Source of the DNA: Candidatus Bilamarchaeaceae archaeon
GTDB taxonomy: Archaea > Micrarchaeota > Micrarchaeia > Anstonellales > Bilamarchaeaceae
NCBI GenBank assembly: GCA_035289085.1
Contig: DATDYG010000019.1
Coordinates: 1 to 35,335 of the forward strand
DNA: 35,335 bases
Reading direction: 5' to 3'
Shown here: one piece after another, positions 5,294 to 33,872 of the stretch
Layout: every line of letters starts with the position of its first letter
Position numbering within the stretch: the first letter of the stretch is position 1
Notes under the pieces: generated by a model
Told to the model about the DNA's origin: nothing
Database searches by the model: none
The model's input: only the letters and a program-made list of their open reading frames with translations
Made by a program: the position numbers and the translations under genes

Positions 5294-5304
5294 GGCTAAC
5301 TACG

Positions 5305-5324
5305 TATTTAAAAACATTTAAAAC
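5305..5324. promoter_or_regulatory. back-to-back TATA boxes serving divergent leaderless genes (pyrH and the translin-like gene)
   Basis: TATTTAAAAA (5305-5314) is centred about 26 nt upstream of the ATG at 5336. CATTTAAAAC (5315-5324, reverse complement GTTTTAAATG) is centred about 27 nt upstream of the minus-strand start at 5293. Confidence 0.6.
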
Positions 5325-5335
5325 CAATCCTATTC

Positions 5336-8083: not shown

Positions 8084-9031
8084 CTATATAAAAAATAGGT
8101 AGAGCAATGCCTTCGGAGCTATAATCTTTAAAGCATGTAATTGATCAGTTTTGAGTATTTGCTTTGCCAGTAAAGTTTTCTCAGCTTCTTCAAGTTTTTT
8201 GGTATCAGTTGCATCAGATAAAACACGCGTTTCAACATCGTAGAAATTGTTATCCATGTAAACCAAAAGCAATAATACTCTAGCCGCCATAGTCACTAAA
8301 TCTTGGCGTGAGATTCTGCCCTTTACTAGAGTATCCTGAAAGCTTCCGAGTGAATTTGGGGTTATGAAAAATGATGGAGAAGGCATAACTTCGATGCATT
8401 TTAGCAGTGTCTTCTGAACGTCTTCGATGCATTGAACCTCTTTATGGTTTGTGTTTCTCAATCTGTTTTGGTCATAGATAATCTTGTGCCAGTTCTCTTT
8501 CATACCGTCCAGACTCGGCTTGTTATCAAGAAGACAGTTAATATCAAAAATGTCCTTAATAATCTGGGACTGCTCTTCCCCCAGCCGTCCTATTGTTCCA
8601 AAGGCAAGTGACGATAATTTCGATGCAATGAAATAACTTTGCGTGGGCAGCAGGGTTTCAAAGTCTCCAAAGCGTCTTTTTTCTGTTTCTGGAATTATCA
8701 GGTGTGTTATGTCAAGCTTTACCATTACGTCTTTCTTTGTAACTGTGTAAAATACAAAAATTGGATTGCGGCCTTTTCTTTTTACAACACTGTAGCCAGC
8801 ACTCTGGAGTTCATGGATAAGTTTGTCTGTTTCACCAAAATAAGAAATATCAAGGTCAATACTCAGTCTTTTCTGCTCTGGTAAAATGGCTTGAATGGCA
8901 CTGCCGCCAAGGAAAACGATTTGCTTGTCTAATTTTGCCAATATGGCTAATACTTCAAAAACTTCGTTGCTTCTTTTTTCAAAATCCTTGTTCACACACT
9001 CACACTCCCAGGGTTCGCGATACTTTAGCAT
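8084..9031 (-). CDS. AbiEii/AbiGii-family nucleotidyltransferase (type IV TA toxin-like)
   Basis: VFLGGSAIQAIL....KRLSIDLDISY fits the GG[ST]AL...R.S.D[IL]D nucleotidyltransferase core of AbiEii-family proteins. The gene lies in an AT-rich island. Confidence 0.7.
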   Translation of the reverse strand: MLKYREPWECECVNKDFEKRSNEVFEVLAILAKLDKQIVFLGGSAIQAILPEQKRLSIDLDISYFGETDKLIHELQSAGYSVVKRKGRNPIFVFYTVTKKDVMVKLDITHLIIPETEKRRFGDFETLLPTQSYFIASKLSSLAFGTIGRLGEEQSQIIKDIFDINCLLDNKPSLDGMKENWHKIIYDQNRLRNTNHKEVQCIEDVQKTLLKCIEVMPSPSFFITPNSLGSFQDTLVKGRISRQDLVTMAARVLLLLVYMDNNFYDVETRVLSDATDTKKLEEAEKTLLAKQILKTDQLHALKIIAPKALLYLFFI

Positions 9032-9117
9032 TGCTGAGGAGAGACGAACCCTATGCCTTTATTTTTCTTATGTACCACATATGAATCGCCTAAAGCATAT
9101 AAGCATTAGCGAGGGCT

Positions 9118-9732
9118 TTAGCCCTGGGAGTGTGTCACCATTTTTAGCAGCTCAAGATTTTTCATGCCATTCTTGAAGTGCCGTTCGTCAATCTTAATCG
9201 TTGTTTTCTTTGAAAGGTGATACGCAAATATGCTTACAAACCAGCCCAAATATCTTCTAAGCGAATAGCGGTATAACTCATTAAATTTAACAAGATCAGT
9301 ATTTGTTAGATAATGCTCCCAAAGATCCAAAATATCATGCAATGAAATTGGCAAAATGCCTTTTTCTGAGTAATAAAGAAGATCAACAAGGCATTTCTCA
9401 AGTTTTGGACGAGATTCTTCTACTTCTCTTCTAGTTTTGCCTTTCCTTGCCACAATAACTATGCTGGCCTTTTTATCCACTAATCTTATTCTGAGTATTG
9501 GTTTTTTTATCCCTGCATAAATTTCATGATCTGGATAATTTTTAACCATCAATTCAACCAATGAATCTATTGCAACTCGATCGCACTCAATGAAAATTAT
9601 GTTCTTTCTCCAATTATGAAGCATAGGCATAAAAGGGGTTAAATCCCAGATAACAATACTTAACGCTGGCATCTCCCTATGAATCACTTTTGTTATTTTT
9701 CCAGTCTCTTTTCCGAATATAATACTTGTCAT
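9118..9732 (-). CDS. hypothetical protein, candidate cognate partner (antitoxin position) of the 8084-9031 nucleotidyltransferase
   Basis: 204-aa ORF immediately upstream on the same strand, which is the canonical antitoxin-first order. I saw no obvious N-terminal winged-HTH and recognised no family. Confidence 0.45.
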   Translation of the reverse strand: MTSIIFGKETGKITKVIHREMPALSIVIWDLTPFMPMLHNWRKNIIFIECDRVAIDSLVELMVKNYPDHEIYAGIKKPILRIRLVDKKASIVIVARKGKTRREVEESRPKLEKCLVDLLYYSEKGILPISLHDILDLWEHYLTNTDLVKFNELYRYSLRRYLGWFVSIFAYHLSKKTTIKIDERHFKNGMKNLELLKMVTHSQG

Positions 9733-9740
9733 ATAATTAG

Positions 9741-9777
9741 TTTATATGACAAGATATAAAAAGCTATCTTTTGTCAT
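9741..9777. promoter_or_regulatory. palindromic TATA/operator region in the divergent TA promoter
   Basis: TTTATAT(9741-9747)/ATATAAA(9754-9760) is a perfect 7-bp inverted repeat. ATGACAAGATA(9746-9756)/TATCTTTTGTCAT(9765-9777) is an imperfect palindrome. The ATATAAA arm lies 22-28 nt upstream of the minus-strand start at 9732. Confidence 0.5.
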
Positions 9778-9808
9778 CTATGATTTACTAAATTAGCAAA
9801 TCGATAAG

Positions 9809-9819
9809 ATTAAAAATAG
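9809..9819 (+). promoter_or_regulatory. TATA box for the 9839-10513 nucleotidyltransferase gene
   Basis: ATTAAAAATAG lies 20-30 nt upstream of the ATG at 9839. Confidence 0.5.
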
Positions 9820-9838
9820 TTTAATCTTTATTAGTTGT

Positions 9839-10513
9839 ATGGCTATATTTGAAAAATGGGATTGGATAAAAAGAAACTGGCTCTACGTGCTGGAGGAAGC
9901 TGATAAATTAGGCCTTGTTTTCGCAGGTGGCACAGCACTTAACCTAGCTATATTTAGGGAATATCGGGCATCCGAAGATATCGATTTATATAATCCTGAT
10001 TCTAAGGGCGTTGATAATCCAAAAGGTATTGCAGAAAGTGAACTGGCAGCCGAATTAGCAGAGCAGCTTGCAAAAAAAGGATTTGAGATAGTGAAAATCG
10101 AGGGAAGGGTGATCTATACAGGGCCCAATATAAAAATTGAAATTTTTAATGATGGCACGTTATTCAATAAAATAGAAAAAAAGACGATAAAAGAAGTAAA
10201 AATAGCGGTTTTTGATTTGCCTACTTATGCAGAAATGAAAATGTCAGCCCTTCTTTGCAGGACGAATTATGATTCACGCGATCTTATAGATGTTTTTATC
10301 CTCCATACTGGGGGCAAGGTCAAACTTTCTTTCCCAAGAATGGAATGCGAAATTATCGAAAATCAGTTTCACCAGCGCCTTAAAGAAATAAAAGAAACCA
10401 AAAAAGGCGATCTTTACATTTTCCAGACAAAGGAGCAGGTTGATTCTCTTCCATTCAACGAATTTGAAAAATTTAAGTGGTGGTTATCTGACTGGCTATC
10501 AGGATTTCATTAG
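9839..10513 (+). CDS. AbiEii-like nucleotidyltransferase (second copy)
   Basis: VFAGGTALNLAIFREYRASEDIDLY is the GGTAL...R.S.DIDL core motif. A later SRDLIDVF block is also typical of the family. Confidence 0.7.
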   Translation: MAIFEKWDWIKRNWLYVLEEADKLGLVFAGGTALNLAIFREYRASEDIDLYNPDSKGVDNPKGIAESELAAELAEQLAKKGFEIVKIEGRVIYTGPNIKIEIFNDGTLFNKIEKKTIKEVKIAVFDLPTYAEMKMSALLCRTNYDSRDLIDVFILHTGGKVKLSFPRMECEIIENQFHQRLKEIKETKKGDLYIFQTKEQVDSLPFNEFEKFKWWLSDWLSGFH

Positions 10514-10514
10514 G

Positions 10515-11078
10515 ATGTTCAGCGGTGGGGCATTTGTCTCCTCAAAGGAGATTGCACGGAGCTTCAATTTTCCAAAGGCCCTGAGCTCACTGTATATCAT
10601 ACCGACATTCTTCAAGGGCATCTATTATGTCCCATCAGAAAAAGAACGAAAAGGCCATTTCATAGACAAACCAGCACAATTCTTTTCCAATCTTTTCGAT
10701 TTTGCATATGGAAGAAAGAAATGGTACTGGTCGCTAAGTACTGCTGCAAGGCACTATGGTTCGGAGTGGAGTTCTACAAAAATCCTGGAAATAGTGGCTG
10801 TAGGGGAATCAAAAAAACTGGATATTATTTCTAGAGCCGAATCCCTTGGAAGGAAAAGGTCATATCGTTCCAGGACGCTGTCGAAAATCCTGTTATCACT
10901 CGGCATAAACCTTGTCTTCATACATAAGGGAAAAAGGATTTTCTTGAAAGAAATAAAAATCGATTCCGAACTTGGACCTGTGGCAACAAAAGAAAGGCTA
11001 AAAAAGGATGCTGTTTTTTTCCTTCCTCGAAACAAAGATAAATCACTCAGGAGATTGTACAAGAAATACCTGCAATGA
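10515..11078 (+). CDS. AbiEi-like putative antitoxin/transcriptional regulator (start chosen at the ATG just after the upstream stop)
   Basis: The track ORF runs 10440-11078, and the in-frame ATG at 10515 follows the upstream TAG directly (TAGGATG). FFKGIYYVPSEKE and YWSLSTAARHYGSEWSSTKILEIV resemble the RG.Y and S.L..hG blocks of AbiEi-family antitoxins. The gene order here is toxin-first. Confidence 0.5.
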   Translation: MFSGGAFVSSKEIARSFNFPKALSSLYIIPTFFKGIYYVPSEKERKGHFIDKPAQFFSNLFDFAYGRKKWYWSLSTAARHYGSEWSSTKILEIVAVGESKKLDIISRAESLGRKRSYRSRTLSKILLSLGINLVFIHKGKRIFLKEIKIDSELGPVATKERLKKDAVFFLPRNKDKSLRRLYKKYLQ

Positions 11079-11199
11079 AAAATGGTGGAATATCACAAAT
11101 AGTTATTTTTCATGTAAACAAATGGCTTTATAAAACTTTCCATCCATAAATATAATATCTGGGTTAGATATATTATATTAAAAAATGAGAGGTGTGTCT

Positions 11200-11979
11200 A
11201 TGGGTGCTGCAGCAGTTCAACCTGTTCAAAAAGAAAGAGTCAGAGGTCCTTATTTACGTGTATTGGTGCCTAGATCCCAAGGTGTTCCTTTTGAAAGAGC
11301 ATTAGTCTTGGCAGAAGGGGCAAATGGAGTTATTGCTTCCAATAAAAGATTAGATAAAGCTTTAGTTGGTAGTGATGAGTGGCAACGTGTCAAAGAGGTA
11401 TTTGCTGCTTGGTCTGGCACAATGACTGCTTATAAAGAACCAGGTCAAAAATTAGGTAAACAAATTGAATACGTAGATTCTGAAACTGATTTTAGGTGGG
11501 TATTTTCTGTTCCAGAAGCCCATAAGGATAAGAAAAGTGCTATTCTAGTAGCTGAACATCCTGATTATACTTTAGAAGTAGACGGAAGAAACAGAGTTGT
11601 TCATGCTGCAAAAGTTGATTTAGTTGGAGAATTTCCAGCTTCTGATGGTTGGTATTTAACAGATAGAGTTCACGGAATACCGACTGGTGAGCAGGTCCCT
11701 TCTTCAAACGGTGATGCAAGATATTTATGGAGAATAGCCAGTAGAGTGGGCCCTGTTGCTCGTGGCTTCTACGGCAGGCGGTACGTGGGCCTCGTTTACA
11801 GGCCGTCCGACGGTTACGGGGTGGCAGTCGAGGCCAGCGAAGCTGGCGCGCCGCTTGAAACGGGTGCTCCTATACAACTAAAAATGACTAGAGAAGGCGA
11901 TGGCAAACTAATCGTTGAAGGAACTAAAGAGCAGTTAGATGCAGCAACAAGATTAGTTGAAGGACTAAAGCAAAAATAA
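11200..11979 (+). CDS. hypothetical protein with mosaic base composition
   Basis: The track ORF starts at 11185, but AGAGGTG (11188-11194) sits 5 nt before the in-frame ATG at 11200, so I prefer that start. No family was recognised. Confidence 0.55.
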   Translation: MGAAAVQPVQKERVRGPYLRVLVPRSQGVPFERALVLAEGANGVIASNKRLDKALVGSDEWQRVKEVFAAWSGTMTAYKEPGQKLGKQIEYVDSETDFRWVFSVPEAHKDKKSAILVAEHPDYTLEVDGRNRVVHAAKVDLVGEFPASDGWYLTDRVHGIPTGEQVPSSNGDARYLWRIASRVGPVARGFYGRRYVGLVYRPSDGYGVAVEASEAGAPLETGAPIQLKMTREGDGKLIVEGTKEQLDAATRLVEGLKQK

Positions 11980-12122: not shown

Positions 12123-13850
12123 ATGTTGCTTTTTCGCGAAGTTGCTGAAGTTTTTCTTGAAATCGAAAAACGCTCTGGCAGGCTGGAGATGACCGATCTG
12201 CTTGCGACACTGTTCAAGCACGCGGATGCACAAGAAATAAACAAGCTTATCTATCTCGTGCAGGGCATCCCGGCCCCGCCCTATGAAGGAATTGATTTGG
12301 GCATGGGCGAGCAGTTCGCCATCCGCGCCATTGCTGCGGCCACGGGTTATGGAATGGCAGAAGTGGAAAAGCACTACAAGAAAAGCGGCGATTTGGGTAT
12401 CACGGTCCATGAACTAATCGGTAAAAAAAAGCAGCAGTCGTTATCCGTCCGCCAAATGGACATCAACTACGTATACAGTGCCTTCCTTAAAATCGCCCAA
12501 ACCGCTGGAAAAGGCAGCCAGGAATTAAAGATCAAATATCTGGCTGAATTGCTCAACAATGCGTCACCATCCGCTGCGCGGTTCATCGTGCGTTTTGCCC
12601 TGGGCCGCTTGCGCTTAGGCGTGGGAGATCCCACGATCCTCGATGCCTTGTCCGTAGCCAAAACAGGCGACAAATCCCTGCGGGAGCCGCTGGAACGCGC
12701 GTATAATGTCTGTGCAGACATGGGTTATGTGGCCCGGATATTTTACGAAACCCCCAAGAAAATAGCCCGGTTCAAGGTCCAACCGTTCAAGCCATTGATG
12801 CCGGCGCTGGCCGAGCGGCTAAGCACGCCGGAAGAAATTGTTGATAAGATCGGTGAATGCGCAATAGAAAAAAAATTCGACGGATTTCGCCTGCAAGTGC
12901 ACAAGCAGGGAAATCGCGTTGCCCTCTACTCGCGAAAACTGGAAGATATGACAAACATGTTTCCTGATGTAGTAAAGGCAGTGCAGCAGCTTAAGGCAAA
13001 AGAAATAATTTTTGAAGGAGAAGCATTGGCCTACAATGAAAAGCAAGGTCGTTATTACTCCTTCCAGCAAACGATGCACAGGAGAAGAAAGCACGGGATA
13101 GAGGCAGCAAGCAGGGAACTGCCGCTTAACGTGTTCTGTTTTGACCTGCTCTATCTGAATGGAAAGGATTTCACCCTACAGCCCTATGCCCAACGGAGAA
13201 AACAGCTCGAAAAGCTCTTCCCTAAAAATATTCTTAAACTCAGTGAAAAAACAAATGTAAAAACCGGAAGCGAGCTAGAGAAAATATTCCAGGAATCGCT
13301 TGCACAGGGTTTGGAAGGAATAATGGCCAAGGATTTACAAGCACCGTATACCGCAGGAAAAAGAAAATTTGCCTGGATCAAGCTGAAGAAATCCTATGGA
13401 AAGGCCTTGGATACGATCGATGCGGTAATCGTTGGCTATTTCCTGGGCAAAGGCGCACGGGCCGAATTCGAATTCGGCGGCCTGCTCGTGGCCGTACGCA
13501 ACGAAGATACGCAAAAGCTGGAAACCGTGGCCAAGGTGGGTTCCGGGTATACGGAAGAGGAAATGGGCCAGCTGCAGAAACTGCTGGAGCGCATCCAAAC
13601 CACGGCTCCGCCTTCCCAGCTCGCCTTCAACGAGGCGCAACAACCGGATTTCTGGGTAGAGCCAAAATACGTCGTAGAAGTTGCATTTGACGAGATCACG
13701 GAATCGCCGACGCACACGTGCGGCATGCATGGTGGAAAAGGCTATGCATTGCGCTTTCCAAGAATGTCAAAATTCCGCGAGGATAAAAGCATAAGGGAAG
13801 CAACAACTACGCAGGAAGTTATCGAATTATATCATAGACAGAGAAAATAA
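12123..13850 (+). CDS. lig: ATP-dependent DNA ligase
   Basis: The adenylation motif EKKFDGFRLQVHK (KxDG) is present, along with FEGEALAYNE, EGIMAKDL and WIKLKKSY motifs. The 575-aa size is typical of archaeal Lig1-type enzymes. Confidence 0.95.
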   Translation: MLLFREVAEVFLEIEKRSGRLEMTDLLATLFKHADAQEINKLIYLVQGIPAPPYEGIDLGMGEQFAIRAIAAATGYGMAEVEKHYKKSGDLGITVHELIGKKKQQSLSVRQMDINYVYSAFLKIAQTAGKGSQELKIKYLAELLNNASPSAARFIVRFALGRLRLGVGDPTILDALSVAKTGDKSLREPLERAYNVCADMGYVARIFYETPKKIARFKVQPFKPLMPALAERLSTPEEIVDKIGECAIEKKFDGFRLQVHKQGNRVALYSRKLEDMTNMFPDVVKAVQQLKAKEIIFEGEALAYNEKQGRYYSFQQTMHRRRKHGIEAASRELPLNVFCFDLLYLNGKDFTLQPYAQRRKQLEKLFPKNILKLSEKTNVKTGSELEKIFQESLAQGLEGIMAKDLQAPYTAGKRKFAWIKLKKSYGKALDTIDAVIVGYFLGKGARAEFEFGGLLVAVRNEDTQKLETVAKVGSGYTEEEMGQLQKLLERIQTTAPPSQLAFNEAQQPDFWVEPKYVVEVAFDEITESPTHTCGMHGGKGYALRFPRMSKFREDKSIREATTTQEVIELYHRQRK

Positions 13851-13852
13851 GA

Positions 13853-14671
13853 TTATTGCGCAGCAACCGCTTCTGCTGTCGTATCCGTCTGCGGCTCCGT
13901 TTTTTGTTCGATGATCTTCCTTAATCTCAGGAGCGCTTCGGTCTTGAGCTGGCATGCCCTGGATACTGTTACCCCCAGCATTTCGCCGATTCTTTGCAAC
14001 TCTACTTCTTCAAAATGATATAAAATAATAATCATCCTATGTCTCGGGCCAAGCTGGTTGATCGCATCTCTTAATGTTAACATGTCCTCCCTGCTGATCA
14101 CATGACCTAGGGCATCCACCTGATTTGCAACTGTTCCTCTGGTTAAGAAGGCAAGGTCCTCCTCTGCTAATGCATCCAGAGGGCGGCTTCGTGCTCTCCG
14201 TGCCAAGACCAGCACTTCCCGTAATTTTTCTATACCCATCTGCGCTCTTTCTGCCAGTTCCTCATCCGAAGGCTCGCGGCACAGCTCCTTCCTGAGTCTC
14301 TCATCTATTCTCTGTACCCTCTTTAATTGGATTCTTTTATCCCTGGAGAGTGGATCCACCATTCTCAGTTCATCCAGCATTGCCCACTTCACTCTTTTTT
14401 CGGTGAATTGGCGCGGGGTGCCTTGTTCCGGATCATGATCCTGGCGCATTCTTTGTACGAATGCCATCCTTCCGGCCTGGGCCAGATCCCTATAATCCAC
14501 CGCATACCTTGTTCTGGCAGCGAGGCGGCGGGCCATTGACTGTATCCATCCGTCATTTTCTCTTAATAATACGTCCATTCTGTCCACAAGGGGCTTTATG
14601 CTGGCCAGTTTTGCCTGTAATCCTGCTCCATGCGCGGGCAGCATGTCCGCCTTTAATGCCACTATCGCCAT
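13853..14671 (-). CDS. sigma-70 family protein, FliA/sigma-28-like (paralog 1)
   Basis: Region 2-like DLAQAGRMAFVQRMRQDHDPEQG..FTEKRVKWAMLDELRMVDPLSRDKR. Region 3-like PSDEELAERAQMGIEKLREVL. Region 4 HTH LGPRHRMIIILYHFEEVELQRIGEMLGVTVSRACQLKTEALLRLRKI. Confidence 0.8.
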   Translation of the reverse strand: MAIVALKADMLPAHGAGLQAKLASIKPLVDRMDVLLRENDGWIQSMARRLAARTRYAVDYRDLAQAGRMAFVQRMRQDHDPEQGTPRQFTEKRVKWAMLDELRMVDPLSRDKRIQLKRVQRIDERLRKELCREPSDEELAERAQMGIEKLREVLVLARRARSRPLDALAEEDLAFLTRGTVANQVDALGHVISREDMLTLRDAINQLGPRHRMIIILYHFEEVELQRIGEMLGVTVSRACQLKTEALLRLRKIIEQKTEPQTDTTAEAVAAQ

Positions 14672-14688
14672 TATTATATATTAGTAAC

Positions 14689-14701
14689 AACTATTTAAAA
14701 A
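14689..14701 (-). promoter_or_regulatory. TATA box (TTTTTAAATAGTT on the minus strand) for sigma paralog 1
   Basis: The plus-strand 13-mer AACTATTTAAAAA begins 18 nt beyond the start codon at 14671. An identical 13-mer sits at the same spacing upstream of paralog 3 (17172-17184). Confidence 0.6.
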
Positions 14702-14726
14702 TGTATTGGATAATGGCTTTTAATGG

Positions 14727-16469
14727 CTATTGCGCAGCCGTTGCACTGTCTGCTATCGCCGCAACTTTCTTCGCATCCGCAGCATTTCCTGCTTCCAGTT
14801 CTTTGTGCAGCCGGTTTCCCAGGCGCGCAAAACCAGCCAGATACAAGTTGATAAGGCTGCCCCTTGGTATTCCCCCTCTTTCCTCGATTAATATACCGTT
14901 TGCGATCAGATCTGCCAGTTCGCCTTCTCTCAACTGCAGGGCATGTTCTGTGTCTTCCCTATCTGCTATCCACCCGTCCAGGGGCGGCAGGTTCGCCATG
15001 CTTGTCGCTCCCAAAAAGGAAATGCGTCTTTTGTTATCCATTAAAACCGGAAAATCCGTTTCCCTGTCCAGCCGGCCTGTATACTGTCCCAGACTTCTTC
15101 TTCCTATTCCTCTGCTGTCATAAATCTCATTATATATTCTTCCGGCATCCAATTTTTCCCGCATCATCACTGCCAGATGCTCCAGAACCAGATCCCTGTC
15201 CTGCTCTGCATAACCTGAAACAATCCTATCCATCCACCGCTGTGCAAACCGATCCAAAAACCCATCCCAAGGATCCTGCTCTGCTACTTGGGTCCTTTCC
15301 CCTACTGGTTCTGCCAGCTCCATCCCCTCCTCTTCGGTCGGCGCCGTCCGTCGCTCATCCCTGCCTGCTTCAGGTGCAGCAACTTCGTACTGCTCTCCAA
15401 GTACTGCCTCCAATACCTCCTGTTCCGCTGCATCTTCCGATCCTACTTCCCTTTCCAGTTCTACAAGCCTCTTCAGCTCCTCTCCCAGTCCCTCAAGTCC
15501 GTCCAGAAACCCATCCAAGTCCGTTCCATCTTCCTCGTTTCTCCCTGTCAATCCCTGCTGTTCCATCGGTGCTGGCGGTCCTTCTTTCTCCTCTACCACA
15601 GCATCTGCTTCCAATTCTGCGGAAGCTGCCTGTAATCGTCCATTGCTTCCCCTGGCTATGTTCTTTGCCGGTACCTTGTCGGATTTTAACATCTCTTTTA
15701 ACTGTTCTCTGGCTTCCCCGAGAAGCTGGCATATCCTGGATTCCGTGACCCCCAATTCTTCGCCTATTTGTCCTTGCGTGCGTTCTTCAAAATAGTAACC
15801 CTCTATTACCCGCCGATGCCTTGGGGAGAGCTCTTGCATAAACACATGTATCTGCATCTCATCCATTCTTCCTACCAAGAGGGTCAGTGAATCCAGCTGC
15901 TCGGCCGGTACATTCGCCAGCAAATCCAATTGATCGGAAGGTGCTCCTGTTCTGTTACGGGGGGTGAAGTAGGCGACTAAGGCGGCCTTCTGCATTATTC
16001 GGACCCTACGTGCCTTCTCCACTGACCAGTCCATTCCTTCAGCCAGTTCCTCGTCCGTGGCATCCCGGCCATGGGATTGGGAGTATCCCCGGTCCACCTT
16101 CCTTGCTCCCCTAACATCCCTTCTCATGTTCCGGCTAAGAGGATCCATATCTCTCAGTTCATCTATTATCGCCCCCCGGACTCTCTCCGCTGCGTATGCC
16201 TCAAAGGCACCTATTTGTTCCGGATCACAGTGGTGGTAAGCCCGGATCAGTCCCTCCATTCCTGCCTGTTCCAGATCCTCCTTCACTCGCACAGCACGCG
16301 GAACTTTTCTGGCATATTGTTCGGCCATCTTTCTTACACGGGGCCCTAATCTTTCCACTACGCTATCCAGTCCTCCCAATCCCTTGATGACCCTGAATTG
16401 CCTTGTTCTTCCGGCCATTTTAGGTTTATTCTGCAACTGCTTAAAGGTCATACCATCTACCATCTGCAA
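14727..16469 (-). CDS. sigma-70 family protein, FliA-like, with a C-terminal extension of about 320 aa (paralog 2)
   Basis: DLEQAGMEGLIRAYHHCDPEQIGAFEAYAAERVRGAIIDELRDMDPLSRNMRRDVR and LSPRHRRVIEGYYFEERTQGQIGEELGVTESRICQLLGEAREQLK are present. The track start at 16469 is a TTG. In-frame ATGs at 16463 and 16451 fit the upstream TATA better, so the start is uncertain by 2-6 codons. Confidence 0.75.
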   Translation of the reverse strand: MQMVDGMTFKQLQNKPKMAGRTRQFRVIKGLGGLDSVVERLGPRVRKMAEQYARKVPRAVRVKEDLEQAGMEGLIRAYHHCDPEQIGAFEAYAAERVRGAIIDELRDMDPLSRNMRRDVRGARKVDRGYSQSHGRDATDEELAEGMDWSVEKARRVRIMQKAALVAYFTPRNRTGAPSDQLDLLANVPAEQLDSLTLLVGRMDEMQIHVFMQELSPRHRRVIEGYYFEERTQGQIGEELGVTESRICQLLGEAREQLKEMLKSDKVPAKNIARGSNGRLQAASAELEADAVVEEKEGPPAPMEQQGLTGRNEEDGTDLDGFLDGLEGLGEELKRLVELEREVGSEDAAEQEVLEAVLGEQYEVAAPEAGRDERRTAPTEEEGMELAEPVGERTQVAEQDPWDGFLDRFAQRWMDRIVSGYAEQDRDLVLEHLAVMMREKLDAGRIYNEIYDSRGIGRRSLGQYTGRLDRETDFPVLMDNKRRISFLGATSMANLPPLDGWIADREDTEHALQLREGELADLIANGILIEERGGIPRGSLINLYLAGFARLGNRLHKELEAGNAADAKKVAAIADSATAAQ

Positions 16470-16481
16470 ATATTTTTATTC
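16469..16481 (-). promoter_or_regulatory. TATA-like element for sigma paralog 2
   Basis: The minus-strand sequence reads GAATAAAAATATT. Its centre lies about 25 nt upstream of the in-frame ATG at 16451. Confidence 0.45.
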
Positions 16482-16503
16482 CCTTGTCCCAGATTCCCAA
16501 AGC

Positions 16504-17154
16504 CTATTCTGTTTTTCCGCCTGGCACTGCCACCAGCCAGGGCCTGCCATTGCCATAGCCGCAGGCGGGTGCCTCCATTGCCGCTTTCAATTCCCCGAGC
16601 GCTTCTTTGATAAGCTTGGATACCATAGGTTGGCGGATGCCCAGTATTTCGGCTATTTCCTTTTGGTCTACGCCGTCAAAAAAGTATAATTTTATTGCCA
16701 GCTGTTTCCTCCTGCCCAGCCGGTGAATTCCTCCCATGAGCCTTCCTATCTGCTGGCTGCGTGCCGTTGCTTCAAAGGGATCCGCATCACGGGACACGGG
16801 TTCGCTGTCCGAGCGCAGGGGAGCAGGAATATCACGGTACCGCAAGTCTCTCAAGTAATCCATCATCCGGCACCGCACTTTCCATCTCGCAAATGCTTCA
16901 AACGTGCCTCTTTCCGGGTCATATCTATGTCCTTCCGCAAGCAGCGCCATTCTTCCTGCCTGCACCAGATCATCCGCATCGGCTCCATGTTCCCAGGCCA
17001 TCCTGCGGGCCATGGTGCGGATCAATGAGTCGTGCTCTCTCAACATGGTTGCATCAGTATGCAGTCCTTCTGCCATCCCGTCCCTGAATCCTCTTCGGGA
17101 TGCAGGGACAGCGCCGGGTTTTGAGGCGTTCTGTAATCGGGTAACTAGTGCCAT
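16504..17154 (-). CDS. sigma-70 family protein, FliA/ECF-sized (paralog 3)
   Basis: DLVQAGRMALLAEGHRYDPERGTFEAFARWKVRCRMMDYLRDL is region 2-like. LGRRKQLAIKLYFFDGVDQKEIAEILGIRQPMVSKLIKEALGELK is a region 4 HTH. Confidence 0.75.
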   Translation of the reverse strand: MALVTRLQNASKPGAVPASRRGFRDGMAEGLHTDATMLREHDSLIRTMARRMAWEHGADADDLVQAGRMALLAEGHRYDPERGTFEAFARWKVRCRMMDYLRDLRYRDIPAPLRSDSEPVSRDADPFEATARSQQIGRLMGGIHRLGRRKQLAIKLYFFDGVDQKEIAEILGIRQPMVSKLIKEALGELKAAMEAPACGYGNGRPWLVAVPGGKTE

Positions 17155-17171
17155 GTGTGTATATATATTAT

Positions 17172-17184
17172 AACTATTTAAAAA
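17172..17184 (-). promoter_or_regulatory. TATA box for sigma paralog 3
   Basis: AACTATTTAAAAA is identical to 14689-14701 and also begins 18 nt beyond the start codon (17154). It lies in the 37-nt gap after the Mrp stop. Confidence 0.6.
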
Positions 17185-17191
17185 CCTATGG

Positions 17192-17977
17192 TTACTCTGT
17201 TATCGCTTTCACTGCATTCACAAAAACATCCCGGAATTCCGTTGTATGCAGGGGTTTTCTTTCCTGCAGATACCGCTGGATTTTTTTATCCAGGGGAAGA
17301 GAGCCGAAAAATGGGAGGTTGAATTCTTTTGCCAGTTTTTTCCCTCCACCCGAACCAAACATCTCCCCGCTCATGTTTTCTATGATTCCATATACATTCA
17401 GCTTTAGCTTTTGTGCAAATTTTATGCTTCTTCTTGCATCCATTATGCCAAGCTCATTGCTGGTAGTTACAATAACGAAGCCGTGGGGCCTGAGCATCTG
17501 GGCTATAGTGAGTGCGGCATCGCTCGATCCGGGCGGCATGTCCAAAACCAGATAATCAATATCCCATTCTACTTTATAGACGAATTCTGTAATTGCAGAC
17601 GAAATCATCGGGCCCCTCCAGAGCATGGCACTCTTCCCGATAATGGCTCCCATGGAAACCACCTGCAGTTTACCCGACACCAGCGGCTGTATCTTCCCTT
17701 CCTTGGCCGTAAGCCGCTCCTCCAGTCCCAATGCCAGCGGAACATTCGGACAGTCGATATCCGCGTCCAGCAATCCCGTCTTTCCTTTTTCGGCGAGTGC
17801 CCAAGCTAAATTGATCGCTATGGTTGTTTTTCCCACCCCTCCCTTTCCGCTCCAAACTGCGATGCGTCTTTTTATCTGATTTAATTTATTTTCTAGCTGT
17901 TTCTGCTGCTGTTCTAATGGAGATTCGCTCCGTTCGCTGAATTTTTTCTTCCGCTCTTCAAATTCCTTAAGTTCCAT
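17192..17977 (-). CDS. mrp: Mrp/NBP35-family P-loop ATPase lacking the CXXC motif
   Basis: Deviant Walker A WSGKGGVGKTTIAINLA, plus LLDADIDCPNVP, VLDMPPGSSD and IIENMS motifs. The CxxC normally found after ENMS is absent (ENMSGEMFGSGGG). Confidence 0.85.
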   Translation of the reverse strand: MELKEFEERKKKFSERSESPLEQQQKQLENKLNQIKRRIAVWSGKGGVGKTTIAINLAWALAEKGKTGLLDADIDCPNVPLALGLEERLTAKEGKIQPLVSGKLQVVSMGAIIGKSAMLWRGPMISSAITEFVYKVEWDIDYLVLDMPPGSSDAALTIAQMLRPHGFVIVTTSNELGIMDARRSIKFAQKLKLNVYGIIENMSGEMFGSGGGKKLAKEFNLPFFGSLPLDKKIQRYLQERKPLHTTEFRDVFVNAVKAITE

Positions 17978-17987
17978 AAAACCAGGT

Positions 17988-18287
17988 TTACACCATTCCT
18001 AAAGCCAGCTTGGCCTTCTCGCTCATCCTGTCCGGGCTCCAGGGAGGGTCCCAGACGATCTCTATCTTTACCCGATCCACTCCGGGCAGTTCTTTTACCT
18101 TGGCCTCAATCTCGCTCAGCAACTGATCCAACAGCGGACAGGCGGGCGTCGTTAACGTCATTTTAATCTCCACACTCCCTCTATTTTCATGAATGTCATA
18201 CACCAGTCCCAAATTCACAATATCCATGGCAATTTCTGGATCGTATACGGTCGTCAATTTATCCAGTATCTCTTGTCGGGTTGCCAT
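17988..18287 (-). CDS. DUF59/MIP18-family (SufT/PaaD-like) Fe-S assembly protein
   Basis: 99 aa. ILDKLTTVYDPEIAMDIVNLGLVYDI and LTTPACPL are the typical DUF59 signatures. Confidence 0.8.
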   Translation of the reverse strand: MATRQEILDKLTTVYDPEIAMDIVNLGLVYDIHENRGSVEIKMTLTTPACPLLDQLLSEIEAKVKELPGVDRVKIEIVWDPPWSPDRMSEKAKLALGMV

Positions 18288-18289
18288 GG

Positions 18290-19276
18290 TTATCTCCCTG
18301 CTACCGGGTTTATCTCTAGTTGGGATTCCTGCTCTGCGGTATGGTGAATGGTTTCCCCGGCATAATATATCTTGTAACCGCTCTTGGCGGTATGCAGCGT
18401 TCTTTCTCCCATCTCCACTGCCGTTACTCCCCTGGCTACGATAACCTCTGCGCGGGTGATGGCCACCGCTCCTTCGGCGGTTTCTTTGGTTAGCATCTCC
18501 GCTATTTTGGGCAAGGCCTTAACCGCTCCTTTCGCCGCCAGTTGCAATGCCTTGGCAGCGGTTATCGTAATCGCCACCTCAATGGCCGCGTTTTTCACAA
18601 ACTCTCCGGAAACCGATAAAAATCCGCTAAGCTGTTCCAGTTCCGCATGGTTCTGCCGGAGCAGGGAAGAGAGGTTTCCGTGTGCATCCCCCAATCCCTC
18701 CATCGCATACGCCAGCCTGTCCTGCGCGGTTTGAAGTTGTTGGCGGTCCCCGGAAAACAACGCGCGGGTCATCTGATTATAGGATTCATAGAAGCTTTCC
18801 AGTTTCATGTCAAAACGCCTGGCTTCCTGGGCGGCCTGGGCCCATACCCTGGTTTGCTTGCCGCTTAAATATTTCCCTGCTTCTCCCAATACCTCTTTCG
18901 TATCCTTTAATGTCACTATCTCTTTCCCACTGGTCCATTCATACAATTGTACAAACGGATGGCCCACAGCCGAGAGCGCTCCTGCTGCCCCGGATCCCAA
19001 TCCAGCGGCAACCTCCTTTGCCCGGCTGGGTTTGTTTGCTGCGAGTTCGGCCTGCATCTGCTGCAGCGCATCGCCACTTGAACTGGCATGTTCGGCTATT
19101 TTTAGCAGCTGCTGTATGGCAGGCCGGTACTGCTGGTACGTGTCCAATGCGGCTTGCTGCTGCTCGGTCAATGGCCGTTGCTCCATCCAGGCGGCGGCCC
19201 GCTGCTCCACATCCCGCAGCTGCTGCACGTTTTGCTGGAATGCCTCCTGCTCCTTGGTCATTTGTTTGAATGCCAT
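18290..19276 (-). CDS. hypothetical Gln/Ala-rich helical protein
   Basis: 328-aa ORF. AGGTGA SD overlaps the upstream stop 4-9 nt before its ATG, and its stop abuts the DUF59 start, which suggests translational coupling. No family was recognised. Confidence 0.55.
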   Translation of the reverse strand: MAFKQMTKEQEAFQQNVQQLRDVEQRAAAWMEQRPLTEQQQAALDTYQQYRPAIQQLLKIAEHASSSGDALQQMQAELAANKPSRAKEVAAGLGSGAAGALSAVGHPFVQLYEWTSGKEIVTLKDTKEVLGEAGKYLSGKQTRVWAQAAQEARRFDMKLESFYESYNQMTRALFSGDRQQLQTAQDRLAYAMEGLGDAHGNLSSLLRQNHAELEQLSGFLSVSGEFVKNAAIEVAITITAAKALQLAAKGAVKALPKIAEMLTKETAEGAVAITRAEVIVARGVTAVEMGERTLHTAKSGYKIYYAGETIHHTAEQESQLEINPVAGR

Positions 19277-19280
19277 ACAT

Positions 19281-20036
19281 TCACCTGCGGCTGGGCACGC
19301 TGTCCCGCACGGAATTCTCCCTGTGCAATTCCAATATCCGCTTCAGTGCCGGATCGTCTGCAACGGCGGCCTGCCACTCCGAGGCTACGCGGGGGTTTAT
19401 GCGTACGGCCCATTGAATAAACAGTCCTTTTTCCGGCAGTGCCACTTCCCCATCTTCTACTTCTGCATGCAACCGTTCCACTGCCTTGGCCGGGTCAATC
19501 AGTTTGTTGTGAAACATCATATACGTTGCAGTCGTTGCAATGCCATGCAGCAGCAAATACTCCTCTGATGAAAACGGCATCCGCATCCCTGCTCCGGCCC
19601 GAACCAGCTGCACCGCTGTTTCAAATCCCTGCTCCCCAAACCGCGCCAGCCCGTATGCCAGCGTTTTCATGTATCGAAACCGCCGGAGATTGGTTTTTCG
19701 GAGCTGGCTGAAATCCTCCGGACTCCTACCCGCCAACAAAACCTGTTTCCGGATCTCTTCGAGCGCTTTTCCTTTGTATCTATCTACAAAGCTCTGCATA
19801 ATGTCAAACCGTGTCTGCTCGCTTAAATCTTCGGCCAGGATGGCAAAAACGATGCTGCGCGCCTTTTCAAACGGCAATTTCTCCATGGCTTCGGCTGCCC
19901 GTTGCTTGGCATTGGATTGAGTTGCAACTATCGCCATATCATCTCCTCCTTTGCATGCAATGTGTTCTACTGCCGGAACCGTTGCCAATACCAGCGATAT
20001 TGCCGTTCTCCGGATTATCTGAAATCGTTGTACCAT
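19281..20036 (-). CDS. hypothetical protein, possible signal or lipoprotein-like N-terminus
   Basis: 251-aa ORF, the first gene of a same-strand run. Its N-terminus reads RRTAISLVLATVPAVEHIAC. No family was recognised. Confidence 0.55.
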   Translation of the reverse strand: MVQRFQIIRRTAISLVLATVPAVEHIACKGGDDMAIVATQSNAKQRAAEAMEKLPFEKARSIVFAILAEDLSEQTRFDIMQSFVDRYKGKALEEIRKQVLLAGRSPEDFSQLRKTNLRRFRYMKTLAYGLARFGEQGFETAVQLVRAGAGMRMPFSSEEYLLLHGIATTATYMMFHNKLIDPAKAVERLHAEVEDGEVALPEKGLFIQWAVRINPRVASEWQAAVADDPALKRILELHRENSVRDSVPSRR

Positions 20037-28312: not shown

Positions 28313-28501
28313 TTTTGACTTTAACCAGTCCTTATTTATCGAAGAATAAACCGATTTCAGCAGTTTTGCCTGCTTTTTCGACCAAACCCTATTGGGCTGG
28401 CTTTTTATGATACCGGCTATCCGGTCTATAAACCGTAACGAGGCCCGTATATCCTTTTTTCGTTCCCGTTTCATTTTTCCCAGGTCAAGCAAATGAACCA
28501 C
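28307..28501 (-). CDS. small basic hypothetical protein (64 aa), possible partner of the upstream nucleotidyltransferase-fold gene
   Basis: The ORF overlaps the 3' end of 28485-29108 by 17 nt, and an alternative Met at 28474 avoids that overlap. It overlaps the convergent trm56 stop by 6 nt. No family was recognised. Confidence 0.3.
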   Translation of the reverse strand: MVHLLDLGKMKRERKKDIRASLRFIDRIAGIIKSQPNRVWSKKQAKLLKSVYSSINKDWLKSKS

Positions 28502-29108
28502 CGAGGTTATGCAATTTACTGGAAACTTTTAATTTCTTTGCAAAATGAACAATCTTCCTTTGGTCCAAATGCTCCTTAAATATGTCAAAAAGATATCGTG
28601 CATCCTCCCAATCCTTTTTGGATCCCAGGTACAGTTTATACGCTACCTGAAGTTCCAAAGGAGAAATGTTTATTTTGTGCTTTTTATTGATCGTTACCTC
28701 CACGGGATGGCTAAGCGATAAGAACCCAAGCGCATCTCTGGGTTTTTTTACCTCCATGTTGGGCGAAATCTCATTTTTTCTGGCCACGCGGAACGGATCA
28801 TTATGCTGAAAAAGAAGTTTAAGCGTATCCCAGGATCCCGCGTTAATAATCCAATGATCCTTCTGCAGTTCTTTGTATAATGCAAACAGTTTTTTTTCGT
28901 CTATTTCCTCTATAAAAATATCCACATCCTCTGTAATCCTGGGACGACCGAAAAGCAGGACAACATATCCGGACATTAAAACATATCTTATTCCTACTTT
29001 ACCCAGGATGGCGGTAAAACCCAGGACAAACTCATCCAGTACGTTCAGTTCCTTGTCCAGGCGAATCTTCCCTTCCCCATACCCGTATTCCATGCCCCTA
29101 TTAAGCAA
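28485..29108 (-). CDS. nucleotidyltransferase-fold protein (minimal NTase-like)
   Basis: YVLMSGYVVLLFGRPRITEDVDIFI fits the G[SG]-x(n)-[DE]xD polymerase-beta-type NTase core. The gene is AT-rich like the AbiE island. Confidence 0.6.
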   Translation of the reverse strand: MLNRGMEYGYGEGKIRLDKELNVLDEFVLGFTAILGKVGIRYVLMSGYVVLLFGRPRITEDVDIFIEEIDEKKLFALYKELQKDHWIINAGSWDTLKLLFQHNDPFRVARKNEISPNMEVKKPRDALGFLSLSHPVEVTINKKHKINISPLELQVAYKLYLGSKKDWEDARYLFDIFKEHLDQRKIVHFAKKLKVSSKLHNLGGSFA

Positions 29109-29138
29109 TGAAGCGTTAAAATGCCTTTTCCTGTGGCA

Positions 29139-30191
29139 TCAGTCTTTTTTTGCATCTTTTCTTGAAAAATCCCCAAAAATTTCCAGTCCTGGGGCGGTTC
29201 CTATGCTTGGCAGTGCCTCCAGCGGCATGTCGATAAATAGTTCCCCATCCCCGAATCCATACTCCTCCTCAAAGGCCCTCCGGGCTTCCAGCGCTGCCGT
29301 GAATTCCCCGAATGTTTCCAGTCCTTCCACCGGGCTTACGGAAGGCAGCGGCCGTCTTCTTTGCCGCATAAGCTGCTCTATCTCTGCCGTTATCTGTTTC
29401 GCCAGTCCCTGTCTTTCCTCTCCGCTTAATTCACGGCTCGTTATGCTTAGCCTCCCATCTGCCATCAGCTTAACCGGACTGTAGTAATCCCGAAGACTGG
29501 TAGCTCTGCGATACCTGTCCGGTGCTACAATGGCTAAAAAATTCCTGCCATTAAGGAAATCGGATAACGTCCCCTCATTGTACATCCTAAGGAATTCCTC
29601 TGCCGTATGCACCTCTCCATCAAATTGGAAGGCCCTATTCGTGGTGACGTGCAGGTGGGGGGTTTTCCCTGCCTGTGTATTCCCGCTGATCGCAACGATC
29701 GGTAGGGGCTTACCGGGTTCTGCCCTTATCTCCCTTCCGATGTGCCTTTCGTTCAGCAAGCCCAATGTTGCCCCGGAAAGATGGGCAAAGAGCATGAAAT
29801 ACGGCTTTTCCGGATCCGGCACAAAAAACACCACCCCATTGCCGATGCTTTGGCCGGCATGGCTGTCCTTTTTGCAAACCCCTATCAGAACGACCGTTGG
29901 GGCCGGCAGAAGAACCGGTGTGCCTATGCGCACCACCAGGTCCACACCTGCATGCCGTTTGCTTCCGTGGTTTCTCGATGCGCCGAAATACCGCGTTCCT
30001 GTTCTTTCGATAACCTGGCGAATGGCATGTTTAAACGGATCGGTTCTATGTCTTTCGGGTGCAGAGAAAGTTGGATGAGCGGGTTCCGCATGCACCGGCC
30101 CTTCGCCAAGTACCAGTCCGGATAGTGCAACCGCTGCTGCGCGAACGGTGCCCATGGCTGGCGTGAATGCTCGTGTATGTAGTCTTCGCAT
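29139..30191 (-). CDS. secreted M23 (LytM/lysostaphin-type) metallopeptidase with a C-terminal extension carrying two GLE[TI]FG[ED]F motifs
   Basis: Signal-peptide-like MGTVRAAAVALSGLVLGEGPVHA. M23 zinc ligand motifs are HAGVD (HxxxD, residues 80-84), FAHLSG and TPHLHV (HxH, residues 179-181). The motif copies lie at 29301-29324 and 29166-29189. Confidence 0.75.
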   Translation of the reverse strand: MRRLHTRAFTPAMGTVRAAAVALSGLVLGEGPVHAEPAHPTFSAPERHRTDPFKHAIRQVIERTGTRYFGASRNHGSKRHAGVDLVVRIGTPVLLPAPTVVLIGVCKKDSHAGQSIGNGVVFFVPDPEKPYFMLFAHLSGATLGLLNERHIGREIRAEPGKPLPIVAISGNTQAGKTPHLHVTTNRAFQFDGEVHTAEEFLRMYNEGTLSDFLNGRNFLAIVAPDRYRRATSLRDYYSPVKLMADGRLSITSRELSGEERQGLAKQITAEIEQLMRQRRRPLPSVSPVEGLETFGEFTAALEARRAFEEEYGFGDGELFIDMPLEALPSIGTAPGLEIFGDFSRKDAKKD

Positions 30192-30210
30192 TATCTATCC
30201 CACATATCAC

Positions 30211-30220
30211 TATAAATAAA
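30211..30220 (-). promoter_or_regulatory. TATA box for the M23 peptidase gene
   Basis: The minus-strand sequence TTTATTTATA lies 20-29 nt upstream of the start at 30191. A second TTTAAATAAG lies just upstream at about 30224-30233. Confidence 0.55.
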
Positions 30221-30271
30221 AACTTATTTAAAGATGCGGTATTCTATACCCCTGCTCAAACCCGCCAAAAA

Positions 30272-32449: not shown

Positions 32450-32530
32450 TCCTAACGTCAGAGCCAGCAGTGCGGATGGATGTCTGGACCTGCTGTCCTT
32501 GGGTTTACCGGTAACTATTTTTCCCCATCT

Positions 32531-32677
32531 TTAAATATTTGCCACAAGACTGCTTTTCGACCTGGACTGGATGAACTCCCCGAACGTCTCGAGCCCTGCC
32601 GCTTTGATTTTCGCCAAAAAAGGATTCTTTCTCTTTTTCGATACGGTTTTTGCCTTCTTCTTGGATGGTTTTGCCAT
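32531..32677 (-). CDS. unannotated small ORF (48 aa): basic N-terminus plus GLETFGEF motif
   Basis: My translation is MAKPSKKKAKTVSKKRKNPFLAKIKAAGLETFGEFIQSRSKSSLVANI. AGGTGAGG SD lies 3 nt upstream of the ATG and overlaps the upstream TGA. The ORF carries the same 8-aa motif as two neighbouring proteins and is too short for the supplied ORF track. Confidence 0.5.
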   Translation of the reverse strand: MAKPSKKKAKTVSKKRKNPFLAKIKAAGLETFGEFIQSRSKSSLVANI

Positions 32678-32682
32678 GGACC

Positions 32683-33834: not shown

Positions 33835-33872
33835 ATATTCATTATGACTTTAAATGAATAAATTCTTTTACA

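Follow-up and report, generated by a model that had tools for sequence, protein, structure and literature searches.

In textbooks, transcription initiation in bacteria is set apart from that in archaea and eukaryotes by sigma factors on the one hand and TBP and TFB on the other, and archaea do not use sigma factors. What, then, are sigma-70 family genes doing on a contig with archaeal genes? This question is raised by a 35,335-nt stretch of DNA (the window, meaning throughout the whole stretch that was analyzed) from the metagenome-assembled genome (MAG) of a "Candidatus Bilamarchaeaceae archaeon" (Micrarchaeia, order Anstonellales, DPANN). An intact, duplicated sigma factor behind archaeal promoter sequences asks, in turn, whether a bacterial initiation factor is reusable by the other type of RNA polymerase (RNAP). 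We found that the locus consists of three intact paralogous sigma-70 family genes, here named S1, S2, and S3, of bacterial group-3 (FliA/WhiG-like) ancestry in a DPANN archaeal chromosome. The genes and the parts of S2 are the following (aa, amino acids):

13853..14671, minus strand: S1, 272 aa, sigma2-sigma3-sigma4 protein of the sigma-70 family
14727..16469, minus strand: S2, 580-aa open reading frame (ORF) with a TTG start; likely true start Met7 at 16451
15693..16358, minus strand: sigma core of S2 (aa 38-259), with FliA-like regions 2, 3, and 4
15270..15674, minus strand: acidic linker of S2 (aa 266-400)
14730..15269, minus strand: orphan C-terminal region of S2 (aa 401-580)
16504..17154, minus strand: S3, 216 aa, two-domain sigma2-sigma4 protein without region 3

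Sigma-70 domains and conserved residues of S1, S2, and S3

A first-pass annotation of this DNA had described three minus-strand ORFs of 272, 580, and 216 aa with sigma-70 region 2 and region 4 sequence. Their coordinates, lengths, and quoted peptides were all recovered, and the check with domain hidden Markov models (HMMs) returned significant matches to Pfam and to the sigma-70 superfamily model TIGR02937. In Pfam-A, S2 matched region 2 (E-value 5e-10), region 3 (5e-7), and region 4 (5.5e-16), S1 matched region 4 (4e-13), region 3 (4e-10), and, below the gathering score, region 2 (0.0026), and S3 matched region 2 (3e-12, aa 38-105) and region 4 (8.5e-8, aa 143-190) with no Pfam-A match to region 3. 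Against the Sigma70_r2 gathering score of 24 bits, S2 and S3 reached 39.5 and 46.6 bits, and S1 stayed under the threshold with 18 bits; region 2 of S1 was nonetheless included in the alignment with a full-length FliA HMM (NF005413 positions 25-239). The Sigma70_r4 gathering score of 24.1 bits was exceeded by all of them (S1 49.1, S2 58.3, and S3 32.0 bits), as was the TIGR02937 cut-off of 42.9 bits (65.9, 96.4, and 87.4 bits, respectively). The top-scoring models were those of FliA/WhiG for S1 and S2, and for S3 these came a close second after the superfamily model. However, the curated cut-offs of these models were missed by the 3 proteins, both that of TIGR02479 (FliA/WhiG, 189.6 bits; S1 128.1, S2 139.1, S3 85.7) and that of NF005413 (201 bits; S1 132.8, S2 144.4, S3 81.4). 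S1 to S3 are thus FliA-like, yet outside the FliA/WhiG subfamily by curated threshold. The label "FliA-type" given to them in the first-pass annotation is correct in that FliA/WhiG is the closest family overall, but not at the level of the curated cut-offs, and it does not suit S3, in which region 3 is missing and the recognition helix is not FliA-like. The FliA blocks that the same annotation had quoted agree with the aligned sequence of E. coli FliA (chain 6pmi_F). The sigma domain of S2 also aligned over its full length with the solved FliA structures 9wsf and 6pmi (approximately 1e-22), and with that of WhiG (6pfv). The AlphaFold model of S2 had a predicted local distance difference test score (pLDDT) of 80 to 98 across aa 20-265, and all the matches returned by Foldseek with this model were sigma factors.

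The state of each protein was assessed at 55 alignment columns with a conservation of 70% or more among 148 FliA-like matches from an exhaustive search (see below), a reference set in which every inspected genomic context was bacterial. S2 keeps 48 of these columns (87%), where the bacterial sequences keep 47.1 on average and 37 at minimum, S1 keeps 37 of the 55, and S3 keeps 25 of the 55. S2 carries DLEQAG in the core-binding helix, FEAYAAERVRGAIIDELR in regions 2.3/2.4, and GVTESRICQL in the -35 recognition helix. In S1, regions 2.3/2.4 are degenerate (FTEKRVKWAMLDELR) and the region 4.2 helix, GVTVSRACQL, keeps the ..SR..Q residues, while the region 4.2 helix of S3 is divergent (GIRQPMVSKL). 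The DLxQAG motif of the core-binding helix is common to the 3 paralogues despite an overall identity of approximately 30%. A three-domain architecture with conserved residues is found in S2, in which regions 2, 3, and 4 all scored above the gathering score, partially in S1, and not in S3.

Beyond its sigma domain, S2 carries 315 extra C-terminal residues. They comprise the acidic linker (net charge -25, pI 4.05), which is mostly predicted with low confidence or disordered, and the last approximately 180 residues (aa 401-580), in which AlphaFold predicted helices with low confidence. No homologue of this extension was detected in Pfam, PHROGs, BLAST, the fetched proteins, or the protein databases. 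One could speculate that the acidic tail is an autoinhibitory or interaction module.

Archaeal setting, ancestry, and promoters of the locus

The sigma-70 genes sit on a contig with DPANN-archaeal flanking genes, of which the two immediate neighbors are:

12123..13850, plus strand: ATP-dependent DNA ligase that converges on S1, with 2 nt between the two genes; synteny anchor
17192..18287, minus strand: two Fe-S assembly genes, DUF59 and Mrp/NUBPL, directly adjoining S3 on its upstream side

The archaeal character of the neighborhood had been proposed from the letters alone, and domain scans identified the genes in question: the ATP-dependent DNA ligase, the Mrp/NUBPL ATPase, DUF59, an XPD-type helicase, an RFC-like AAA+ protein, NMD3, and aTrm56, to which DUF2070 and the proteasome alpha subunit are added elsewhere in the window. 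The flanking ligase has many homologues with 66-79% identity in Micrarchaeota/Bilamarchaeaceae MAGs. No bacterial RNAP gene, flagellar gene, or anti-sigma domain (FlgM/RsiG) turned up in the scanned proteins of the window; the host's own RNAP subunit genes lie outside the window. Chimerism had been a concern of the first-pass annotation, and both junctions of the block were found again in independent assemblies. The order ligase-S1-S2-S3-Mrp recurs with an identical S1 protein in five other assemblies, and a sixth one (L019) came from the metagenome scan. These assemblies originate in different samples and pipelines, match the window with a DNA identity of 99.5-99.9% and single-nucleotide polymorphism (SNP) differences, and include MEGAHIT-style k141 contigs, an ANAN16 scaffold, and JGI contigs. 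Because the junctions are repeated in SNP-distinct assemblies, they are not chimeric.

To place the genes among their relatives we relied on homology searches that together covered approximately 15 billion proteins. Apart from their own clusters, no homologue with more than 42% identity was present. When word-indexed searches were run with S1 and S2, the 90% clusters of the queries themselves came first, and everything after them was sigma factors of 29-37% identity. The S2 sigma domain was also compared exhaustively, with HMMER, to 1.84 billion representatives, which gave 15,798 matches, the best of which outside the cluster of S2 itself was 42% identical, and in this ranking S1 came only at approximately the 64th place. 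Two GTDB genome scans, a JGI metagenome scan, IMG/VR, and phage records contained nothing closer than 42%. An archaeal sigma clade, or close orthologues in other archaea, was considered as a source and rejected, since nothing beyond 42% identity appeared in the protein, GTDB, and metagenome scans. The nearest matches were bacterial in every genomic context that could be inspected: the relative P0065 sits in a fliL-fliM-fliN operon, another lies within an exopolysaccharide locus, others lie beside two-component and sigma54-activator genes, and one named match is from Myxococcota. In three unrelated bacterial contigs (L007 1021-4777, L023 7932-9380, and L024 4403-5818), the nearest S1/S2 homologues adjoin genes for sigma54-dependent NtrC-type response regulators and not flagellar genes. 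These NtrC-type neighbors hint that the nearest bacterial relatives may form a non-flagellar FliA-like subgroup.

Measured by the identity of their ligases (79%, 73%, and 72%), the three closest relatives of the host have retained the synteny upstream of the ligase, with genes for LemA, an M48 peptidase, the proteasome alpha subunit, an amino-acid kinase, translin, a cyclase, an acylphosphatase, and the ligase itself. No sigma genes follow the ligase at this locus in any of the three, and in the closest one the ligase directly abuts DUF59. With no close homologue and with relatives that have no sigma genes at the locus, the trio is, by all sequence comparisons made, lineage-specific, located at a synteny break, and of bacterial group-3 ancestry.

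That the 3 genes are paralogues, as the first-pass annotation had it, was borne out by DNA repeats, by an excess of shared codons, and by common N-terminal motifs. The proteins are 28-35% identical to each other. At the DNA level, direct-repeat similarity among them persists in the blocks coding for regions 2.2, 3, and 4.2 (S1/S2, 78% over 45 nt; S2/S3, 87% over 23 nt), and the promoters and first codons of S1 and S3 align with 72% identity over 46 nt. S1 and S3 also have in common the N-terminal motifs LRE[NH]D..I..MARR and DL[AV]QAGRMA, which are atypical of FliA. Identical codons at aligned identical residues were counted and compared with the number expected from codon usage:

S1-S2: 41 observed, 30.9 expected, P=0.017
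S2-S3: 35 observed, 23.1 expected, P=0.002
S1-S3: 29 observed, 22.6 expected, P=0.06

The residual DNA and codon similarity, together with the similarity of the S1 and S3 promoters and N-termini, suggests that the duplication took place inside the archaeon. These signals are modest, and jointly they favor a single acquisition, after which an archaeal promoter was gained, the gene was duplicated in tandem, and the proteins diverged rapidly. S3 appears to be derived from an S1-like three-domain paralogue by deletion. The composition of the sigma genes is host-like, with a GC content at third codon positions (GC3) of 0.51-0.56 and a codon-usage distance of 0.84-1.03, within the host range of 0.67-1.38; by contrast, GC3 is 0.33-0.39 in an AbiE island nearby, which is plainly foreign. 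No att-like repeats flank the sigma block, and the repeats that were detected correspond to the similarity between the paralogues.

The sequences preceding the 3 genes contain the following elements:

14692..14699, minus strand: S1 TATA box TTTAAATA, with 20 nt between its end and the S1 ATG (leaderless spacing)
17175..17182, minus strand: S3 TATA box TTTAAATA, ending 20 nt before the S3 ATG
16471..16478, minus strand: putative A/T-rich TATA-like box of S2, TAAAAATA, weaker than the S1 and S3 boxes

A TATA box at leaderless spacing had been claimed for each gene, which is the case for S1 and S3 but not for S2, where only TAAAAATA is present. The S3 box falls within the 37-nt gap after the Mrp stop codon. 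Both TTTAAATA boxes are embedded in an exact 13-mer, TTTTTAAATAGTT, of which there are no other perfect copies in the window; allowing up to 2 mismatches, this 13-mer occurs 10 times in the window (1.8 expected), with several of these sites a short way upstream of a gene start. Where a window gene has a recognizable A/T box, the box is most often separated from the ATG by 19-22 nt. This spacing and the excess of the motif suggest that the organism commonly uses leaderless archaeal promoters, of which those of S1 and S3 would be consensus versions. Between the S2 box and the TTG listed as start there is 1 nt, and an in-frame ATG (16451-16449) follows the box after 19 nt. The start of S2 (16449-16469) is ambiguous: the TTG gives a protein of 580 aa, an ATG two codons later, which is the start called in other assemblies, one of 578 aa, and Met7 one of 574 aa. 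The spacing of the box fits the third in-frame ATG at 16451, which points to a start of S2 at Met7 behind a weaker promoter. Alternatively, S2 may be read through in part from S3. The TATA boxes are invariant across all the assemblies, and the S3 spacer has SNPs in two of them. Elsewhere in the window, the amino-acid kinase and translin genes diverge from a short intergenic region (5294-5335) that contains two overlapping TTTAAA-type boxes (TTTTAAATGTTTTTAAATA) and is apparently a compact bidirectional promoter.

The assemblies also allowed us to look at variation within the population. No stop codon or indel was present in S1, S2, or S3 across the six other assemblies (the five and L019). Free drift to a protein divergence of approximately 65-70% would be expected to have brought stop codons or frameshifts, and on this argument the genes are probably functional. 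The numbers of synonymous and non-synonymous SNPs in the five assemblies were 0 and 0 in S1, 3 and 6 in S2, 10 and 10 in S3, and 22 and 8 in the ligase, SNPs being too few for a firm estimate of the population ratio of non-synonymous to synonymous substitution rates (dN/dS). L019 has two SNPs in S1, and 4 of the 6 non-synonymous SNPs of S2 fall in its acidic linker. S3 is a SNP hotspot, with approximately 3% polymorphic sites compared with approximately 0.3-0.5% for the whole region, and its SNP clusters at 16716-16765 and 16845-16982 are combined differently between assemblies, forming mosaic haplotypes. This variable combination of the clusters suggests recombination between alleles or diversifying selection.

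What the three genes may do

We tentatively favor, although we grant it slightly less than an even chance, the reading that S1 to S3 are bacterial-derived, tandemly duplicated sigma genes that have been co-opted as DNA-binding regulators inside the archaeon. Judging from the sequence, one bacterial sigma gene would have been acquired by horizontal transfer, would have come under a native archaeal leaderless TATA promoter, and would then have been duplicated in tandem. In the rapid divergence that followed, S2 would have stayed canonical and gained its 315-aa acidic orphan tail, S1 would have lost the canonical residues of regions 2.3/2.4, and S3 would have lost region 3 and changed its recognition helix. 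The 3 proteins would be made in the archaeon and would bind specific DNA via the helix-turn-helix (HTH) of sigma4, possibly with the help of sigma2 and sigma3, and the differences among their three recognition helices imply a separate DNA target for each. They would modulate promoters that depend on TBP, TFB, and RNAP without replacing TBP/TFB, like other bacterial-type HTH regulators in archaea. Archaeal basal transcription is described as regulated mostly by bacterial-type HTH regulators (PMC2995911), and isolated sigma region-4 domains occur in archaeal regulators (PMC5413776). If S1 to S3 are indeed ordinary HTH regulators, they would be a clear example of the domestication of foreign regulators in DPANN genomes.

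Several observations weigh against such a co-option. The near-complete set of core-binding and promoter-recognition residues of S2 is superfluous for a plain HTH regulator, and its retention is more readily reconciled with binding to RNAP or with a recent arrival; docking on the clamp of the archaeal RNAP, a fairly recent arrival, or action on a bacterial RNAP could each explain the full set. Free sigma factors, moreover, often bind DNA poorly without core RNAP. A sigma28-type promoter consensus was absent or at chance level in the 35-kb window, a result that is uninformative for the remaining genome. The polymorphism of S2 and S3 looks relaxed relative to that of the ligase, the counts being small. 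Finally, with no orthologue above 42% identity and no sigma genes at the locus in the three closest relatives, there is no cross-species conservation that argues for function.

These last points lead to a different reading, which we hold to be unlikely, in which the genes are neutral or near-neutral passengers of a horizontal transfer that landed in a variable spot, were duplicated, and are drifting to loss without any role. The trio is absent beside the ligase in the three closest relatives and synteny breaks exactly here, no orthologues were found among the approximately 15 billion proteins, S1 and S3 are down to 37/55 and 25/55 of the family-invariant residues, and S2 and S3 have relatively many non-synonymous SNPs for each synonymous one, all of which would be in keeping with passengers. 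However, the 272, 580, and 216 codons are intact and free of indels in every assembly compared despite a protein divergence of approximately 65-70%, and neutral drift of this extent would be expected to interrupt the reading frames by stop codons and frameshifts. The consensus TATA boxes are preserved without change, the composition is ameliorated, and S2 retains 87% of the invariant columns, none of which is in line with drifting passengers.

A reading that takes the residues of S2 at face value is that the 3 proteins are promoter-specificity subunits for the archaeal RNAP, with sigma2 on the Rpo1 clamp coiled-coil and sigma4 on DNA, beside or instead of TFB/TFE. The archaeal clamp coiled-coil is structurally conserved with the bacterial sigma2-binding site, the beta-prime clamp helices. 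We consider this reading distinctly unlikely, and with it the hybrid bacterial/archaeal initiation that it would amount to, which would have arisen recently as the transferred and duplicated genes adapted fast to another polymerase. The DLxQAG motif is kept in all three paralogues despite their approximately 30% identity, but it may persist for folding or by simple inheritance. The clamp coiled-coil serves as a docking site for TFE and Spt4/5 (PMC3223566), but its tip is normally occupied by TFE or Spt5. Also in favor is that S2 holds essentially the full set of FliA determinants. Against the reading, no sigma28-like promoter was found in the window.

It is improbable that the genes are cargo of a mobile element, a provirus, or a conflict system, for example the remnant of a sigma-carrying DPANN virus or a defense/offense module. 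Such an origin would agree with the lineage-specific location at a synteny break, the fast protein divergence, the mosaic haplotypes at the SNP hotspot of S3, and the low-GC AbiEii/DUF6577 island approximately 2 kb away, and divergent sigma genes annotated as rpoS are reported from a pair of DPANN viral genomes that includes a prophage (PMC12647753). Yet the block consists of three sigma genes only, with housekeeping genes directly on both sides, host-like composition, no flanking att-like repeats, and no integrase, capsid, terminase, or other viral hallmark near it. The best matches in IMG/VR and the phage records were only 24-31% identical, and cellular bacterial FliA proteins were closer (approximately 40%). 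A viral or phage origin was accordingly rejected as unsupported by the IMG/VR scans, the phage database, and PHROGs searches of the window ORFs without assignment. A defense system was also rejected: PADLOC gave no system match, and the similarity to MzaA was marginal and limited to S3 (E=0.0056, 13 bits), with no match for S1 or S2. The NCBIfam MzaA model scored 30 bits against a cut-off of 800 bits, and none of the partner genes of the MZA anti-phage system is present.

Very improbable, and entirely speculative, is the reading that S1 to S3 are true sigma factors aimed at the bacterial RNAP of a partner cell in the manner of phage sigma factors and passed on by an episymbiont. At the conserved positions S2 is indistinguishable from a working bacterial FliA, which is hard to explain without a bacterial RNAP, and many DPANN are predicted symbionts, some of which are known to live as episymbionts on other archaea (PMC8204110). 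Against this, the Pfam scans of the neighbors, which were not aimed at secretion or delivery, turned up no such system, the hosts of DPANN named in acid mine drainage are archaeal Thermoplasmatales (PMC12647753), and Anstonellales are described as rich in metabolism and perhaps less dependent on a host (PMC12892359). The idea of an artefact of assembly or binning, in which a bacterial fragment was joined to an archaeal contig, has nothing in its favor except the odd gene content and is effectively refuted by the recurrence of both junctions in SNP-distinct assemblies, besides the archaeal promoter sequences and host-like codon usage of the sigma genes.

The surrounding region and known systems

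Other parts of the window differ from those of related genomes as well. Between the ribose-5-phosphate isomerase and the ligase lies a low-GC island (8084-11979, GC 0.34-0.40, GC3 0.26-0.39) that encodes AbiEii-family nucleotidyltransferase toxins, DUF6577, and ORFs without assignment. This island is absent from the syntenic region of the relatives L010, L011, and L012, and looks like a recently acquired toxin-antitoxin or abortive-infection island. Upstream of DUF59 and on the same strand, two ORFs of 328 and 251 aa (18290-20036) have no Pfam or PHROG match, the 328-aa protein having only marginal matches to coiled-coil SMC-like models; since the closest relative, L010, has other genes at this position, these ORFs would also belong to a variable region. 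At one end of the window (28485-35324), five minus-strand ORFs (207, 350, 725, 383, and 483 aa) have no Pfam matches and a single weak PHROG match, that of the 350-aa protein to a metallo-endopeptidase. The related Micrarchaeota contigs L011 (1231-2484 and 4225-5133) and L012 (10731-11606) carry a Cas12f1/TnpB-like gene and Fic-domain genes in or beside the syntenic block, which suggests that the ligase neighborhood is an insertion hotspot.

The presence of sigma-70 genes in DPANN archaea is already on record. Castelle et al. (2021) reported such genes (fam00359) in DPANN genomes, especially those of Woesearchaeota, ruled out mis-binning, found anti-sigma factors absent, and left the mechanism open (PMC8204110). 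The divergent rpoS-annotated genes of the two DPANN viral genomes mentioned above were described in 2025 (PMC12647753). Sigma factors are unmentioned in two Micrarchaeota genomics papers. S3, moreover, is already labeled "sigma-70 family RNA polymerase sigma factor" by NCBI. The novelty implied by the first-pass annotation is therefore reduced by these reports, while its statement that no function is established for sigma factors in archaea was upheld. What is new is the Micrarchaeia host and a tandem three-paralogue array that is apparently species-restricted, together with archaeal promoters of consensus type for two members of the trio, evidence of duplication in place, a graded series of copies from canonical to reduced, and the orphan acidic extension of S2. 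The locus is thus a compact test case, with a canonical S2, an S1 with altered DNA-melting residues, and a minimal two-domain S3.

Among the systems to which the trio can be compared, the bacterial FliA/WhiG/SigD factors (TIGR02479 and NF005413; 6pmi, 9wsf, 1rp3, and 6pfv) have the sigma2-sigma3-sigma4 architecture in common with S1 and S2, and S2 shows the same motifs as FliA (DLxQAG, F..YA..R.RGA..DELR, and GV.ESR..Q). The trio differs from FliA in its archaeal host and in having neither flagellar genes nearby nor a FlgM-type anti-sigma factor among the neighbors. It also differs in the acidic 315-aa tail of S2, the non-canonical region 2.3/2.4 of S1, the missing region 3 of S3, and the archaeal TATA promoters. 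The fam00359 genes are, by their description, likewise bacterial-type sigma genes on archaeal contigs that occur alongside TBP/TFB/TFE and without an anti-sigma factor. That report, however, stresses Woesearchaeota and gives no gene-level analysis, whereas here a tandem trio is found in Micrarchaeia. The rpoS-annotated viral genes are similar as divergent sigma-family genes tied to DPANN genomes, but their contigs, from acid mine drainage, are those of viruses or prophages, whereas the present locus has no viral neighbors and no close match in IMG/VR or the phage records.

S3 resembles the extracytoplasmic function (ECF, group-4) sigma factors, since it is made up of sigma2, a short linker, and sigma4, and exceeds the cut-off of TIGR02937, the model of the sigma70-ECF superfamily. 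In contrast to ECF factors, its best matches after this superfamily model remain FliA/WhiG, in two pieces; among the 25 best S3 matches listed no ECF subgroup cut-off was reached, and it has no anti-sigma-like neighbor. Finally, archaeal HTH regulators (Tfx, LuxR/GerE-type, and HTH_10) use a sigma4-type HTH as DNA-binding module (PMC5413776), and they are the functional analogy that we favor. They differ from the trio in that they are without sigma2 and sigma3, whereas S1 to S3 are complete or nearly complete sigma factors.

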